The notes: generated from the sequence alone by a model not told the origin. DNA of 43,633 nucleotides from a virus (IMGVR_UViG_2563366881_000003), one strand, 5' to 3'. Counted from the stretch's first letter, positions 3,137-17,818 are shown. Numbers and translations are program-made.

Positions 3137-3208
3137 TTCTTGTCTCCATAAAACAAAACCCGCCGTAGCGAGTTCAGATAAAAGAAATCCCCGCGAGTGC
3201 GAGGATTG

Positions 3209-3493
3209 TTATTCATTGCCGATATTCACCTTTATCGCGTACACCTTTACCGGTTTATCGCCGAAGTGAGGATGTGTGATTGTCTTGATTTCATATCCGT
3301 CATACGGGACGTCAATTCTGCGGCTGGAATCGTCGCGCTTCGGATATCCCTTTGTGATAATCAGGCGGTCATACTCCCGGAACATAATTCGCTTATTCCA
3401 GTAGTCATTACACAGGCGATACTCTTCCGTTTTCTCTCCGCGAATCATGGCATCGAAGTATTCACCTTTGACAGCAAGCTGTAGGTTAGCCAC
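3209..3493 (-). CDS. Hypothetical protein, ASCH/DUF3850-like fold suspected; start uncertain (GTG 3493 or ATG 3430)
   Basis: Motif EYFDAMIRGEKTEEYR...REYDRLIITKGY resembles small ASCH-like phage proteins; a GTG lies 7 nt after the upstream stop. Confidence 0.4.
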   Translation of the reverse strand: MANLQLAVKGEYFDAMIRGEKTEEYRLCNDYWNKRIMFREYDRLIITKGYPKRDDSSRRIDVPYDGYEIKTITHPHFGDKPVKVYAIKVNIGNE

Positions 3494-3500
3494 GGTTAAC

Positions 3501-4070
3501 CTACAGTTGTGGTGCTGCCTCAAGAGCAGCCCTGTAACCAGCAGCATGACCGCGAAAGTTAGCAATCTCTGATAGCCACGCTTTAATCATGGCCTGAGTT
3601 GGTTCCTTCGGCACCATAACCCAACCATCCGGAGTTACCGGATAGTTGCCAGCCAGCTCGTTCAACTTGTAAGTCTGGCTTACAGGTTCGGCACCATGAA
3701 GCATGGCGGCACGGCAGGCATTCCAACCATCAACATAATCAAACGTATTGCCATCGTCTGGCTCGATTTCATCCGGCACTACCGGCGCTGGTTGGGCGGT
3801 GACGTTGGAAAAGGCAGCACGCAACCCTGTCTTAATTTCCTCTACCTCATCAGCGCCTGGCGATGAATCTGACAGTGCGTGATGGAATGCGTAAGCCATG
3901 TCGTCGTTGATTTCTACAGGCACACTATCAGCTTTGCGACGCTCCTGTAGCTCGCGCAGAGCCGCTGCAACATAATGACTATTGTGCTGGTCAGCCCACA
4001 GAATGAGCCGAATCAACGTTGCATTTGAAACGTATTCGTCTGTTAGTTTGCTATTGGTAAAAATGGTCAT
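3501..4070 (-). CDS. Hypothetical phage protein, 189 aa
   Basis: ORF coupled to neighbours in the leftward operon; no family recognised. Confidence 0.5.
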   Translation of the reverse strand: MTIFTNSKLTDEYVSNATLIRLILWADQHNSHYVAAALRELQERRKADSVPVEINDDMAYAFHHALSDSSPGADEVEEIKTGLRAAFSNVTAQPAPVVPDEIEPDDGNTFDYVDGWNACRAAMLHGAEPVSQTYKLNELAGNYPVTPDGWVMVPKEPTQAMIKAWLSEIANFRGHAAGYRAALEAAPQL

Positions 4071-4582
4071 GCCGCGTTTCCTTCTTTCTTATTAACAATT
4101 ACACCGTCATATATTTCATTAAGGTGCCCTCTCAACTCCATGCGCCTTAATGCAGATAACATGTAATCGCATTCAACCTGCTTATTTCCAGTAAATGGCT
4201 TATCGTCAGGATTACCCCAACAGCAATTACCCTTGGGCCACCCATGTACTTTCCGTACTCTTCCGTTAACAACGTGAAGTAATCCCCAGCCAGGTGGTAA
4301 ATCCTCAATTGAAATAATTCCCGGCTCACTAATAAAGAATCGCCAGTCGCCCATTCCAAGAGACGGATTTTTACGAAAACGCTTTTTTCTATCTGCCAAC
4401 AAGTCAGCACGAGAACATTTCGCCTCTATCAGGCATGATGCTGAATTTCTGAATCCCATAGCATCTGGCTGTTCTCCGGTACTGGTTACAGCTATAAAGC
4501 GGTCATGAAAACAAACCTTGAACCCGTTGCGCTTAAGGAACTTGTACGCAATCTGACAGAGTTCGCGGTGTGTTAGCGCCAT
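4067..4582 (-). CDS. Putative PD-(D/E)XK-fold nuclease-like protein, 171 aa
   Basis: Candidate catalytic motif D (PDAMGF) ... E-x-K (LIEAKCSR) plus a Cys cluster; inferred by eye. Confidence 0.4.
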   Translation of the reverse strand: MALTHRELCQIAYKFLKRNGFKVCFHDRFIAVTSTGEQPDAMGFRNSASCLIEAKCSRADLLADRKKRFRKNPSLGMGDWRFFISEPGIISIEDLPPGWGLLHVVNGRVRKVHGWPKGNCCWGNPDDKPFTGNKQVECDYMLSALRRMELRGHLNEIYDGVIVNKKEGNAA

Positions 4583-4583
4583 A

Positions 4584-5282
4584 TCACTCTCCTTTGATGC
4601 CAGTGTTTAGAACCTGACAAGCCTCTTTGAGCACCCAGTCAACAGCGTCTTTCCATGCTCCGGTTTCGACTGGCGGATTCTCACGCTTTACCTGTTCATA
4701 GAAACGCACCGCTTTAATCAGTCCTTCAGGTACTACTGGCGATGGCTGTTTAGCTTCTAAATCAGCAATTCTGTCAACTACGGCATCTACTGCATCTGAA
4801 AAACCGAACCAGTTACTCCACTCAGGCCTATCCCCGGTTGCTGCAAAATACATATCAGCTAAAGCAGACTCAGCATGGTCACGCTCGTTAATGAGTTGCT
4901 CTTCGCTTTTCTCCAGTTCAGCAATACGCTTACTTCCATCCGAGATAACACCTTCGTAATACTCGCGCTGCTCGTTGAGTTTTGATTTTGCCAACTCCAG
5001 TTGTTTTGTTAGTTCCGCAATACGGCAAACATCGTTGATACGCGTTTCCTCTAATGCGTTGATCTCATCCAGTAGTGCCAGCACGGTTTCTGGTCCGGCC
5101 AGAAATTTGAAGGCGTTGAGGGCATCAATATCAACACCGCTATCTTTAAGTTCCTGTTCGCTTATCAGATCATCATCAACTGGCAACATTAACAGGCGTT
5201 CCATTGCCGGAATTGCACGCTCTGCCGCCTCACGCAGTGCCTGATAGTCAATCTTGCTCATTGGTTGCCTCCTTTGCGCCAC
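4584..5282 (-). CDS. Ead/Ea22-like protein
   Basis: 232 aa with central coiled-coil region; resembles the Ea22-like family common at this position in lambdoid phages. Confidence 0.55.
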
Positions 5283-5458
5283 GTCGCATTCAGATATCTG
5301 TTGTCGTTAACAGAACCGAAACTCTTTCTCTTAAGCAATTCCTCTCTCGATGGCATTGGCTTTACGCGTTGGCGAATAATCATTTCTGCCGGAAGAATGC
5401 CGGGATTGTATGCAAGTCCTCTCATGGTAAATTCCTCAGTCATTACTGATAGCGCCAT
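5258..5458 (-). CDS. Small hypothetical protein (66 aa; start uncertain)
   Basis: ORF in operon context only. Confidence 0.3.
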
Positions 5459-5732
5459 AGCGTGAGCGGTAATTACGCAGGCGCGGGTCGATATATTCAG
5501 GGAAGTTGGTATATGTGGCTTTGCGGAATGGTCTCATTGCTGTTTCGTTTGTTCGGTCCTTCTCCTGTTTTAGCGCGAGTTGTATATCGCGTCTAAAATT
5601 GCGCTCCGCTTTTGTTTCTGGTGTCAGAGCAAGAAACGCGTCGAAATTGTTTTTGATATTTTCCAGCACCTCCGCCTTGGAGCTACCGGAGCAGTTGCGC
5701 GGGTCATCCGCACCATACAGAGGCGCTGGCAT
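5436..5732 (-). CDS. Hypothetical phage protein, 98 aa
   Basis: ORF in operon context only. Confidence 0.4.
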
Positions 5733-5755: not shown

Positions 5756-6343
5756 TCAGAAAGGAGGGTAATCGTTCTGGCTGTAACCATAATCATCTGC
5801 ATGATTCTGGCTTACGTTTTTAGAGCGATTGTCTTTATCTTTGAGGCTGGCAACCATGTTGGCGATAGTTTCTGGTTGCTTGCCTTCTGCCTTTTCTTTA
5901 AGGGTTTGACCTGTTTGTGCAATAAACGGGATGCGTATTTCCATCTGGTAGCTGTCTGCGCCAGTCTTTTTGTTTGTGGTTAATACTTTCTGGAGCACTA
6001 ACCCGATTTTCTTTCCATGAAATTCAGGTGCAACAAATTTACTGGCGGAAACCATATGTTGTGTTAATTGTCCAATCCCGGCACACCCCATCATGGCGTG
6101 AACGACATTTGCGCCAAATTTGTTTTCCGTGCCGTCATTTTTCTGAACACAAACGCTAAGATACTGGATTTTACGTCCGTCGTCGGATTCTCCAGAAAAC
6201 TCAATAAATTTGGCTCCTTTTTCTGATTGCTTTAGTTCTGCTTCAGTAATGGTAATGATATGAGCGCCAGTTTCGTTAATAAAACCACCTTGCCCTGCGG
6301 TCAGTGCTGCTTCTTCGTTATAAGTAAAAATCACGTTGCTCAT
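5756..6343 (-). CDS. DUF669-type phage ssDNA-binding protein (Sak4-associated)
   Basis: 195 aa, immediately downstream of and overlapping the Sak4-like ATPase gene; a typical pairing. Confidence 0.6.
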   Translation of the reverse strand: MSNVIFTYNEEAALTAGQGGFINETGAHIITITEAELKQSEKGAKFIEFSGESDDGRKIQYLSVCVQKNDGTENKFGANVVHAMMGCAGIGQLTQHMVSASKFVAPEFHGKKIGLVLQKVLTTNKKTGADSYQMEIRIPFIAQTGQTLKEKAEGKQPETIANMVASLKDKDNRSKNVSQNHADDYGYSQNDYPPF

Positions 6344-7020
6344 GCGGCGTTTTCCTTAATTTGATGAACATTATTGATGCCGTAGTAATCACAAACAGTG
6401 GCATCGACGAAAGAGAGATCGTTATCAATCTCATTGGAATCAAACATTCCCATTGGGGATTTAACTGTGTCTGCACCGTTGTTTTTTGTGGTGAAAAAGA
6501 ACTGGTCATCACGGGTAAGGGTGCGAAGAACTATAGTAAACATGCCTTCGACAGTGATTTTCTCGTCCAGCATTTTGCCGATAGTTTTCATTTTCACGCG
6601 CCCAATAGGGGTTTCTTCGGTGTGCGCAAGAAAATAGACTCTCAGGTCATCAGGTGCATCCTGTGCAGCCTTAATCACCTCCCATGCGTGGCGTCCTATC
6701 TCAGTAAATTTATCAAATGATTTCTCTTCTGAGCGGCGCATAAACTCATTGCTCATCACATACTGGAAGTCATCAACAATAACGATTCTTTTCCCGTATT
6801 CGTGAGCACGCTTAATTACGGCAACTATTACGTCCCATTTGTCAGTGGTAACTACGGTTCCTTTTTTTGCTCTGGCATCCCATGCAAGCCAGTCTTTTGA
6901 TTTAAATGGTAGCGGCTTGCCTATTGGTTTTATAAGTATTGCTTCCTCTGGATTGATATTTCTCATGCTGGTTGATTTTCCGGTGCCAGACTCACCGAGT
7001 ATTAATGTCGCAGTTCCCAT
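6340..7020 (-). CDS. Sak4-like RecA-fold ATPase (phage recombination)
   Basis: Walker A GESGTGKS at the N-terminus, Walker B-like IVIVDD; 226 aa. Confidence 0.7.
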   Translation of the reverse strand: MGTATLILGESGTGKSTSMRNINPEEAILIKPIGKPLPFKSKDWLAWDARAKKGTVVTTDKWDVIVAVIKRAHEYGKRIVIVDDFQYVMSNEFMRRSEEKSFDKFTEIGRHAWEVIKAAQDAPDDLRVYFLAHTEETPIGRVKMKTIGKMLDEKITVEGMFTIVLRTLTRDDQFFFTTKNNGADTVKSPMGMFDSNEIDNDLSFVDATVCDYYGINNVHQIKENAA

Positions 7021-15744: not shown

Positions 15745-16459
15745 GTTAATAAATGGCAATGCCATCAAAATGACAAGCATTGAAATCGCTGAGTTGGTTG
15801 GTAAGCGTCATGACAATGTGAAACGTACCATCGAAACGCTGGCTAAAAATGGTGTTATCCGGCTTCCTCAAATTGAGGTTTCCGAAAGAATCAATAACTT
15901 AGGGTTCAATGTTCAGTACGAGTATTACGTCTTCGAAGGCGAACAAGGAAAGCGAGACAGTATTGTCGTTGTAGCCCAGTTGTCGCCGGAATTCACCGCT
16001 CGTCTTGTTGACCGTTGGCGAGAGCTTGAAGAAGCTGCGGTTAATATCCCCAAAACGCTACCAGAAGCGTTGCGCCTTGCTGCTGATCTTGCTGAGCAGA
16101 AAATGCAACTGGAAAACCAGCTCGCAATTGCCGCACCTAAAGTTGAGTTTGCCGATCGCGTTGGCGAGGCCAGCGGAATTTTGATTGGAAACTTTGCAAA
16201 GGTTGTTGGAATTGGTCCAAACAAACTGTTTGCGTGGATGCGCGATCACAAAATCCTTATTGCTTCAGGTTCCCGGCGCAATGTGCCAATGCAGGAATAT
16301 ATGGATCGCGGCTATTTCACAGTGAAAGAAACAGCGGTCAACACAAATCACGGGATACAGATATCGTTCACCACAAAAATCACCGGGCGTGGTCAACAGT
16401 GGCTGACCAGAAAGCTGCTCGATAACGGAATGCTGAAAGTAACAGGGGAGGCTGCTTAA
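15737..16459 (+). CDS. Rha-family phage regulatory protein / antirepressor-like (KilAC-type C-terminal domain)
   Basis: N-terminal motif SIEIAELVGKRHDNVKRTIETL typical of Rha; 240 aa. Confidence 0.65.
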   Translation: MNELINGNAIKMTSIEIAELVGKRHDNVKRTIETLAKNGVIRLPQIEVSERINNLGFNVQYEYYVFEGEQGKRDSIVVVAQLSPEFTARLVDRWRELEEAAVNIPKTLPEALRLAADLAEQKMQLENQLAIAAPKVEFADRVGEASGILIGNFAKVVGIGPNKLFAWMRDHKILIASGSRRNVPMQEYMDRGYFTVKETAVNTNHGIQISFTTKITGRGQQWLTRKLLDNGMLKVTGEAA

Positions 16460-16749
16460 TGGCTAATCTACGCAAAGAAGCACGCGGCAGAGAATGCCAG
16501 GTACGTATTTACGGCGTATGCAATGGCAATCCTGAAACTACAGTTCTGGCACATTACCGGATGGCTGGAATTTGCGGAACGGGAATGAAGCCTGACGACC
16601 TGATCGGCGCATGGGCTTGTAGCGCGTGTCACGATGAAATCGACCGACGCACCTATAATCTCGACAACAAAGACGCCAGACTTTACCACCTCGAAGGCGT
16701 GATCAGGACGCAGGCGATACTGCTGAAGGAGGGGAAGATTAAGTCATGA
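16459..16749 (+). CDS. DUF1364 / YbcO-like putative zinc-binding nuclease
   Basis: 96 aa, motif ARGRECQVRIYGVCNGNPETTVLAH...CSACHDEIDRR recalled from DLP12 YbcO. Confidence 0.6.
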   Translation: MANLRKEARGRECQVRIYGVCNGNPETTVLAHYRMAGICGTGMKPDDLIGAWACSACHDEIDRRTYNLDNKDARLYHLEGVIRTQAILLKEGKIKS

Positions 16750-17270
16750 ACGGTAAAAGATATCCAACACAAAAAGAAATCAATGAATTGTATGAATATA
16801 ATAGCGAAACAGGTTTGTTTATATACAAGAGAAGAGAAAGTGTAAGAGAGTGCTGGAATTCAACATATGCCGGTAAGATTGCTGGTTCTATAGATGAAAA
16901 AGGATACGTTCGTATATCTGTAAATAAAAAAGTTTGTCGAGCTCATAGAATCGCATGGATATCCTTTTATGGAAGTGAACCTGATGGGGAAATTGACCAC
17001 ATAAATGGAGTTAAAAGCGATAACAGAATATGCAATTTGCGCGTTGTAGATGATAAACAGAACTCAAGGAACAGAAAAAAGCCTATTAATAATCGCTCTG
17101 GAGTAATGGGGGTTGCCTACTATAAGAAGAATAAAAAGTGGGGCGCATATATAAACAGTGATAATAAAAAGATATTTCTTGGATTATACGATGACATATC
17201 TCTAGCCGTTAATGCCAGAAAATTGGCGGAATCACGATTGGGGTATCACCATAATCATGGGAGAGGATAA
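16746..17270 (+). CDS. HNH endonuclease with AP2-like domain (paralog 2)
   Basis: HRIAWISFYG...IDHINGVKSDNRICNLR; inserted between the ybcO-like gene and rusA. Confidence 0.8.
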   Translation: MNGKRYPTQKEINELYEYNSETGLFIYKRRESVRECWNSTYAGKIAGSIDEKGYVRISVNKKVCRAHRIAWISFYGSEPDGEIDHINGVKSDNRICNLRVVDDKQNSRNRKKPINNRSGVMGVAYYKKNKKWGAYINSDNKKIFLGLYDDISLAVNARKLAESRLGYHHNHGRG

Positions 17271-17633
17271 ATGGCAGAATACAGATTCACACTTCCGTAC
17301 CCACCGTCGCTGAACACCTACTGGCGAAGACGGGGAAGCCAATACTACATCAGCGATAAAGGCCAGAAATACCGAAAAGACGTTCAGCAAATCATCCGCC
17401 AACTCAAGTTAGACATTTTCACCAAATCACGACTACGAATCAAAGTCATCGCAGACGTTCCAGACTCCCGCCGCCGCGACCTCGACAACATTCTTAAAGG
17501 TTTACTCGACCCCCTTATCCACGCCGGATTTGCGGAAGACGACGAGCAATTCGATGACATTCGCGTAATTCGTGGCGTGAAAGTACCAGGCGGAAGGCCT
17601 GGAATAAAAATCACCGAACTGGAGAACGTATGA
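17271..17633 (+). CDS. rusA: Holliday junction resolvase RusA
   Basis: 120 aa MAEYRFTLPYPPSLNTYWRRRG... with DLDN motif. Confidence 0.85.
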   Translation: MAEYRFTLPYPPSLNTYWRRRGSQYYISDKGQKYRKDVQQIIRQLKLDIFTKSRLRIKVIADVPDSRRRDLDNILKGLLDPLIHAGFAEDDEQFDDIRVIRGVKVPGGRPGIKITELENV

Positions 17634-17818
17634 ACGCCACAATTCAAACGATACCAGAGCTTCTTATCCAGACACGAGGCAATCAGACCGAAGTGGCGAG
17701 GATGCTTTCCTGCGCAAGAGGAACAGTGCTCAAGTACAACCGAGACAGCAAAGGTGAGCGTCACGTAATAGTTAACGGCGTCCTGATGGTCAAACAGGGC
17801 AAGAGGGGAAGACGATGA
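17630..17818 (+). CDS. ninH: NinH-like protein
   Basis: YGNQTEVARMLSCARGTVLKY matches recalled lambda NinH (YGNQTEVARRLKCSRGTVRKY). Confidence 0.75.
   Translation: MNATIQTIPELLIQTRGNQTEVARMLSCARGTVLKYNRDSKGERHVIVNGVLMVKQGKRGRR

Follow-up and report, generated by a model that had tools for sequence, protein, structure and literature searches.

The locus considered here lies in the leftward early operon of an HK620/P22-like prophage and raises the question of what a small protein of this region does for the elements that carry it. The stretch of DNA that was analysed, named the window throughout, comprises 43,633 nucleotides of virus DNA (IMGVR_UViG_2563366881_000003). The gene is an open reading frame (ORF) of its minus strand, running from ATG to TGA and encoding 171 amino acids (aa) in the ORF listing of the window (Table 1). 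The initial annotation of this DNA regarded the product as a PD-(D/E)XK-like nuclease candidate. The fold model, the conservation of the residues and the homology to MmcB support this proposal. Neither of the observations that had been named as refuting it, the lack of a nuclease fold in structure prediction or catalytic residues that vary among homologues, was made, and the product is predicted to be a nuclease-like protein of the PD-(D/E)XK superfamily. The reading favoured here, with moderate confidence, takes the protein to be an active, divalent-metal-dependent PD-(D/E)XK DNA endonuclease from a large and unannotated family of mobile elements, which is probably a sister of MmcB and a more distant relative of Hjc.

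The nuclease proposal started from a D...E-x-K arrangement in the segments PDAMGF and LIEAKCSR. Both are present in the ORF translation, at residues 39-44 and 51-58 (residue numbers refer to the 171-aa window protein), and the arrangement corresponds to D40, E53 and K55. A motif of this kind is by itself no better than chance, because 34 of the 69 window ORFs with a length of 100 aa or more contain D-x(8,25)-[DE]-x-K, and 4 of the 69 contain its PD form. In the nuclease gene the motif becomes meaningful only because of its conservation and of the fold. Conservation was measured in an alignment of 120 distant representatives of 50%-identity clusters. D40 is found in 100% of the representatives, together with D60, G78 and R81, and both E53 and K55 are found in 99%, together with E37, D64, K67 and R70. 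The second half of the protein holds further conserved positions, namely W99 (98%), G100 (97%), L101 (99%) and E137 (98%), followed by R147 (89%) and R146 (88%), and the active-site block also contains S57 and R58 (92% each). The cysteine cluster CCWGNP, a second feature of the initial annotation, is present at residues 120-125 but is not conserved: C120 is a cysteine in 12% and C121 in 2% of the representatives. A zinc or iron-sulfur cluster is therefore rejected, including one bound by four conserved cysteines as in the Cas4/AddB-type iron-sulfur nucleases: no conservation above 23% is seen at any of the seven cysteines.

The second line of evidence is the fold. The AlphaFold2 model built on the family alignment has a mean predicted local distance difference test (pLDDT) of 82 and a predicted template modelling score of 0.77. 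Its helices (H) and strands (E) follow in the order H5-18, E23-26, E41-45, E48-54, H58-65, E80-85, E99-105, E108-113 and H134-150, which contains the canonical PD-(D/E)XK succession of a helix, three strands, a helix and a strand (alpha-beta-beta-beta-alpha-beta core, a four-stranded mixed sheet with helices on its flanks). D40 opens strand 2 and E53 and K55 close strand 3, as expected for PD-(D/E)XK proteins, and the three residues align with the PD...ExK residues of Sulfolobus solfataricus Hjc and of SPO1766. The active site is predicted to be intact, and the family has an invariant glutamate of its own, E37, which forms part of a family-specific set of charged residues (E37, D60, D64, K67, R70, R81 and E137). 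E37 may give the third acidic metal ligand, for which other family members use helix 1. Glu occupies position 7 in 43% of the representatives and Asp in 22%, and position 37 holds Glu in 99%. The weak top matches of the model in a Foldseek search of the PDB are mostly PD-(D/E)XK nucleases, and among the structural matches in BFVD are proteins of phages that bear the names MmcB-like or MmcB family DNA repair protein.

The relationship to MmcB emerges from profiles rather than from single sequences. A single-sequence search of the PDB sequences with the window protein returned noise only. Word-index homologue searches returned close, unnamed relatives and no link to a named family, and the PHROGs matches of the protein (9263 and 631) are both of unknown function. 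An exhaustive HMMER search with a profile of 35 relatives collected 3265 clusters of 50% identity at E <= 1e-3 and 2457 at E <= 1e-10. Family profiles compared with the PDB sequences match 3dnx at E 1e-4 to 2e-4, with Hjc next at E 0.1-0.3; 3dnx is the solved structure for PF06319/DUF1052 (PMC3424549). The 3dnx alignment pairs the family motif PD...IECKvSRsDFlaDkk with VD...IECKSSRADFQADAK, and a structural likeness to this solved structure was found. For a comparison of profiles, the ORFs of 80 Rhodobacterales loci with SPO1766 orthologues were extracted and 61 proteins were aligned; PF06319 recognises one of the orthologues with 161.6 bits. Aligned with these 61 proteins by hhalign, the family gives a probability of 98.1% and an E of 1.1e-13 over 98 columns, which cover residues 8-117 of the window protein. 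PF06319 itself, with a Pfam gathering threshold of 22 bits, gives no match at E <= 0.1 for the window protein or the family consensus, neither of which reaches the threshold. Weak PF06319 matches occur in 6 of 59 diverse members, and the homologue P0254, which is 41% identical to the window protein, lies just over the cutoff with 23.1 bits. By these comparisons the family is a divergent, unannotated sister of the MmcB-like proteins in the Hjc-like clade of PD-(D/E)XK nucleases, and it is a more distant relative of archaeal Hjc than of MmcB, the similarity to Hjc being much weaker. A published report (PMC9578287) describes MmcB as an endonuclease of the PD-(D/E)XK type and as protecting Caulobacter from mitomycin C and cisplatin. 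No study of the window-protein subfamily was found in literature searches that covered MmcB, DUF1052, the plasmid leading region and the exo-xis region, and no biochemical characterisation of the MmcB clade was found in the literature searched.

The surroundings of the gene bear on its role. The window gene occupies an early-operon position downstream of genes for Sak4, SSB, Abc2 and an Ead-like protein and has a strong ribosome-binding site. When the neighbours were clustered in 64 IMG/VR viral loci, no obligatory partner gene was found, a DUF551-like mosaic protein (20/64) and an Ead-like protein (12/64) being present in part of the loci. Family members occupy three kinds of site: phage early operons, a position directly upstream of the primase gene in two virulent lineages, and a position just after psiA in the leading regions of some IncF and IncI plasmids. 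Vibrio Mardecavirus has genes for a polymerase and two helicases, then the homologue and the DNA primase, with the homologue directly upstream of the primase. The homologue also stands ahead of the primase in Ackermannviridae and in Vibrio phage Bakedbeans, once with a homing endonuclease between the two (the primase-adjoining homologues are L175:4863-5480, L176:3980-4597, L178:4001-4684 and L002:2980-3591). The primases of Mardecavirus and Ackermannviridae share no detectable sequence similarity, and the linkage therefore looks independent in the two lineages.

On plasmids, a 67%-identical homologue is found in the leading regions of the IncF plasmid pO26_2 (NC_013362.1, L084:7977-8495) and of an IncI-gamma/K1 plasmid (CP056557.1, L091:4977-5495). 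The order in both is ssb, DUF905, ParB-like, psiB, psiA and homologue, then hok and ardA, and the start of the homologue abuts the stop of psiA. Among the psiB-psiA plasmids, which number more than 5000, about 202 at most carry the homologue, a count that only suggests the absence of the gene from the classical F plasmid. Other homologues lie near a relaxase gene in IncI2 and Vibrio cholerae plasmids, adjoin an antirestriction protein in Cupriavidus, follow an ArdC-like zincin protein in Pseudomonas syringae, and stand among orphan methyltransferases in a Pseudomonas megaplasmid.

Several steps of a mechanism can be proposed from these contexts. The protein would work alone, because no conserved partner gene accompanies it, and would act as a structure- or lesion-specific nuclease rather than as a sequence-specific one. 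It may cleave branched, gapped or damaged DNA intermediates as the DNA of the element begins replication or recombination, after induction, infection or conjugative entry. Such a role is suggested because of the report on MmcB (PMC9578287), the primase linkage, and the neighbourhoods with Sak4 and SSB or with ssb and psi genes. A wider formulation makes the family an establishment nuclease of phages and conjugative plasmids, among the first proteins made at DNA entry or induction and functionally linked to SSB and to priming or the synthesis of the complementary strand. It is put forward because of the primase linkage in two virulent lineages and the site after ssb-psiB-psiA. Its activities could then include the trimming or cleavage of junctions between single-stranded and double-stranded DNA, of stalled forks or of host recombination intermediates. 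This formulation is speculative and has only a slight chance of being correct; if true, it would define a new functional class of leading-region and early-operon factor, beyond another repair nuclease.

A number of observations weigh against an active nuclease of branched or damaged DNA. The window protein has no match above threshold in Pfam, NCBIfam or PADLOC (none in Pfam or PADLOC at E <= 0.1), and Foldseek of the model against the PDB gives nothing at E <= 0.001 and does not list 3dnx. No biochemical or genetic data on any subfamily member were found in the literature. The need for a branched-DNA nuclease is not obvious, because the prophage already has a RusA-like resolvase, and the settings on plasmids are just as typical of anti-defence islands. 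Finally, no partner occurs in more than 20 of the 64 viral loci and the neighbourhoods are very variable; therefore the substrate is not readable from context.

The plasmid contexts also agree with a different account, in which the protein is an anti-defence or establishment effector. An early-made nuclease would then destroy a component of host defence, a nucleic-acid signal, or the DNA of the host or of a competitor, and not the DNA of its own element. The leading-region order with hok and ardA downstream, and the antirestriction, ArdC-like, methyltransferase and relaxase neighbours described above, fit with the anti-defence islands of plasmids (PMC11541004), and the window gene follows abc2, the anti-RecBCD gene, at a distance of three genes. 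On the other hand, PADLOC gives no match, no known anti-defence nuclease family is matched, and the closest characterised relative, MmcB, is a repair factor. The primase-adjoining site in the replication modules of two virulent lineages points to DNA replication and not to counter-defence. The account is regarded as rather unlikely.

A dedicated Holliday-junction resolvase, a homodimeric enzyme of the Hjc type that resolves four-way junctions before packaging, is a poorer candidate and is judged improbable. The family consensus does exceed the Pfam cutoff of Hjc (PF01870, 21.1 bits), marginally, with 21.6 bits and an E of 2.1e-4 confined to the N-terminal 46 residues, and weak Hjc matches occur in 11 of the 59 diverse members, the window protein itself having none. 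The alignment of D40, E53 and K55 with the PD...ExK of Hjc also agrees with such an enzyme. However, this similarity is much weaker than that to MmcB, the glutamate typical of helix 1 in Hjc is poorly conserved (position 7), and the same prophage encodes the RusA-like resolvase. The small share of psiB-psiA plasmids that carry the gene is likewise unlike that of a core resolvase.

Highly improbable is an orphan restriction-type or toxic nuclease, either a selfish cassette or one half of a restriction-modification or toxin-antitoxin pair. A DNA methyltransferase is nearby in some loci and hok/sok or HicAB adjoin the homologue on some plasmids, but neither a methyltransferase nor an antitoxin adjoins the gene consistently; the small protein consists of a single domain, without a recognisable DNA-recognition domain, and prophages carry the gene at high frequency (17% of complete E. 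coli genomes) without a cognate partner. The pairing with a modification enzyme was rejected, as the methyltransferase cluster occurs in just 3 of the 64 viral loci and none is found in the window operon. That the fold is catalytically dead and serves in DNA binding or regulation only is scarcely credible: PD-(D/E)XK folds are sometimes inactivated and the representative P0152 has D-H-V in place of D-E-K, but 119 of the 120 distant representatives keep the three residues exactly, as expected of an active enzyme. P0152, which also lacks the KKxFR segment of the family, may be an inactivated derivative.

The features of the window are collected in Table 1. Leftward, the genes follow in the order Sak4-like, SSB, Abc2, Ead/Ea22-like, nuclease gene, three small genes of unknown function, Xis and integrase. 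The place in the "ea region" assigned by the initial annotation is apt by analogy only; the phage belongs to the HK620/P22-like type, with the gene placed between the Ead/Ea22-like gene and xis. The ATGA overlap that had been described does exist; it joins the stop of the nuclease gene to the start of the downstream gene, and not, as stated, the start of the nuclease gene to the stop of its neighbour. At the other junction, the stop of the Ead/Ea22-like gene (TGA, 4586..4584) is one base ahead of the ATG of the nuclease gene (TGAtATG). The commonest spacing to the neighbours on either side in the 64 related viral loci is a 4-nucleotide overlap. Tight coupling of the gene at both junctions is a fair reading, although the reason first given for translational coupling was inverted.

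Table 1. Coordinates of the nuclease-like gene, its segments and the other features discussed.
Feature	Position	Strand	Remarks
PD-(D/E)XK nuclease-like gene, MmcB-like/Hjc clade	4067..4582	-	171 aa
Active-site block, residues 37-70 (GE37-x-PD40...E53-x-K55-x-S57-R58-x-D60-F-x-x-D64-x-x-K67-x-x-R70)	4373..4474	-	Conservation; aligns with IECKSSRADFQADAK of 3dnx
Residues 76-101 (GMGDWRF...LPPGWGL), core strands 4 and 5	4280..4357	-	Match CDRFFW...LLP..TGL of MmcB-like proteins
CCWGNP, residues 120-125, variable low-confidence loop	4208..4225	-	pLDDT of blocks 111-130 is 76 and 58; alignment indels here
C-terminal helix, residues 134-150, with conserved E137, R146 and R147	4130..4183	-	Model H134-150
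Shine-Dalgarno AAGGAG	4594..4589	-	Precedes the ATG (4582..4580) by 6 nucleotides; overlaps the end of the upstream gene, within which it lies; read from the sequence
ATGA overlap of nuclease gene stop (TGA) and downstream gene start (ATG)	4070..4067	-	Sequence and ORF table
Upstream neighbour, Ead/Ea22-like, same operon	4584..5282	-	Pfam PF13935, E 3.1e-23
Downstream neighbour, function unknown, translationally coupled	3501..4070	-	189 aa; phrog_12449
Abc2, anti-RecBCD	5436..5732	-	Leftward early operon
SSB	5756..6343	-	Leftward early operon
Sak4-like annealase	6340..7020	-	Leftward early operon
RusA-like resolvase	17271..17633	+	nin region, rightward operon of the same prophage
Q-like antiterminator	17815..18333		Same prophage

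The immediate neighbours have features of their own. The protein of the downstream gene has no Pfam match. Both genes that flank the nuclease gene encode the motif QP(S/A)PVVP(E/D), one copy of which reads AQPAPVVPDE. The motif recurs among the DUF551-like neighbours that cluster together in related loci, and it has the look of a linker or junction for the shuffling of mosaic "ea" proteins. The minus strand from 7899 to 3207 contains no strong terminator-like hairpin. Two consecutive terminator-like hairpins with T tracts follow at 3207..3186 and 3175..3156 on this strand, just past the ORF 3209..3565, and could be a tL-type terminator within the early-left operon that is read through under antitermination. 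Elsewhere in the prophage, two paralogous HNH endonuclease genes of the plus strand (16746..17270 and 18528..19040, both phrog_99) flank the RusA-like resolvase and the Q-like antiterminator, with a further HNH-family ORF at 16459..16749; the phrog_99 pair are possibly homing endonucleases.

The gene is widespread. The exact sequence of the window protein is found on at least 1000 contigs, always as "hypothetical protein". Among complete E. coli genomes, 928 of 5426 (17%) encode it, plasmids accounting for 248 of the 1297 copies, and tblastn finds it in 641 phage records. A tblastn search with the family consensus gives 891 plasmids, 418 of them conjugative. The carriers include Stx-converting phages, P1/P7-like phage-plasmids and resistance plasmids of the IncF, IncI and IncI2 types. 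Copies at 99-100% identity are found in P7 (Upf89.0), in Stx-converting phages and in Shigella phage Ss-VASD, and more distant copies in Vibrio phages and Ackermannviridae. A cassette of Ead/Ea22-like, nuclease and DUF551-like genes is common to lambdoid prophages and P1/P7-like phage-plasmids. It is seen in P7 (L001:4313-6811), where it lies downstream of the C1-controlled operator Op(hea), and in a Salmonella P1-like phage-plasmid (L085:7418-9584), where an ASCH protein is next.

Longer homologues of 216-260 aa are labelled "adenylosuccinate synthase" in RefSeq/GenBank (L086:7001-7657, L090:6001-6684, L092:1427-2077, L094:5965-6747 and Shigella phage ChubbyThor). The label was rejected as a propagated misannotation, because Pfam finds no such domain in these proteins. 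Apparent fusions to Ead/Ea22, DUF551, dATP/dGTP pyrophosphohydrolase and TniB look like read-through into neighbours and not like real architectures.

A family-level label such as MmcB/Hjc-like PD-(D/E)XK nuclease would replace "hypothetical" on a very common protein and would also mend the propagated label. Through this family the MmcB clade becomes accessible to experiments in E. coli, and mobile elements may have in it an early or establishment factor. A protein of this type is unsurprising in a phage accessory region; yet this one is very common and wholly unannotated, and its links to replication and establishment are suggestive.

Among the known systems for comparison is the RusA-like resolvase of the same prophage. 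It is a phage nuclease for branched DNA and thus a possible functional analogue of the window protein, but its fold and family are unrelated, and it belongs to the rightward nin region whereas the window gene belongs to the early-left accessory region. The AHJR-like gp51 family (Pfam06190, PMC1189080) consists of small stand-alone phage PD-(D/E)XK proteins, kin of the archaeal resolvases, which often lie beside primase or helicase genes, and the primase linkage is also seen for the window family in virulent phages. The gp51 proteins are, however, of about 100 aa and without the SRxDF-xxD-xK block of the window family, which in turn gives no Pfam match to the gp51 family. Archaeal Hjc (PF01870; PDB 1hh1, 4tkd and 2eo0) has the same PD-(D/E)XK core. 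The helix-1 glutamate, which completes the E...D...ExK tetrad of Hjc, is poorly conserved in the window family, and the C-terminal half differs.

The closest system is that of the MmcB-like proteins (PF06319, formerly DUF1052, COG5321), which include Caulobacter MmcB and Ruegeria pomeroyi SPO1766 (PDB 3dnx) and are homologous to the window protein by hhalign; the window protein would also work in the manner of these proteins. Common to both are D...ExK-SRxDF-xxD-xK, (C/G)D(W)RFF, LP..GL and a C-terminal A-RR-L helix. The window family differs by the invariant E37, which precedes D40 by three residues and is replaced by Leu or Arg in MmcB, and by an additional stretch, KKxFRxxPxxGMG, that separates helix 2 from strand 4. 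Their settings differ as well: MmcB is an SOS-regulated chromosomal gene, mostly of alpha-proteobacteria (PMC3424549, PMC9578287), whereas members of the window family belong to phages and plasmids whose hosts are gamma- and beta-proteobacteria.
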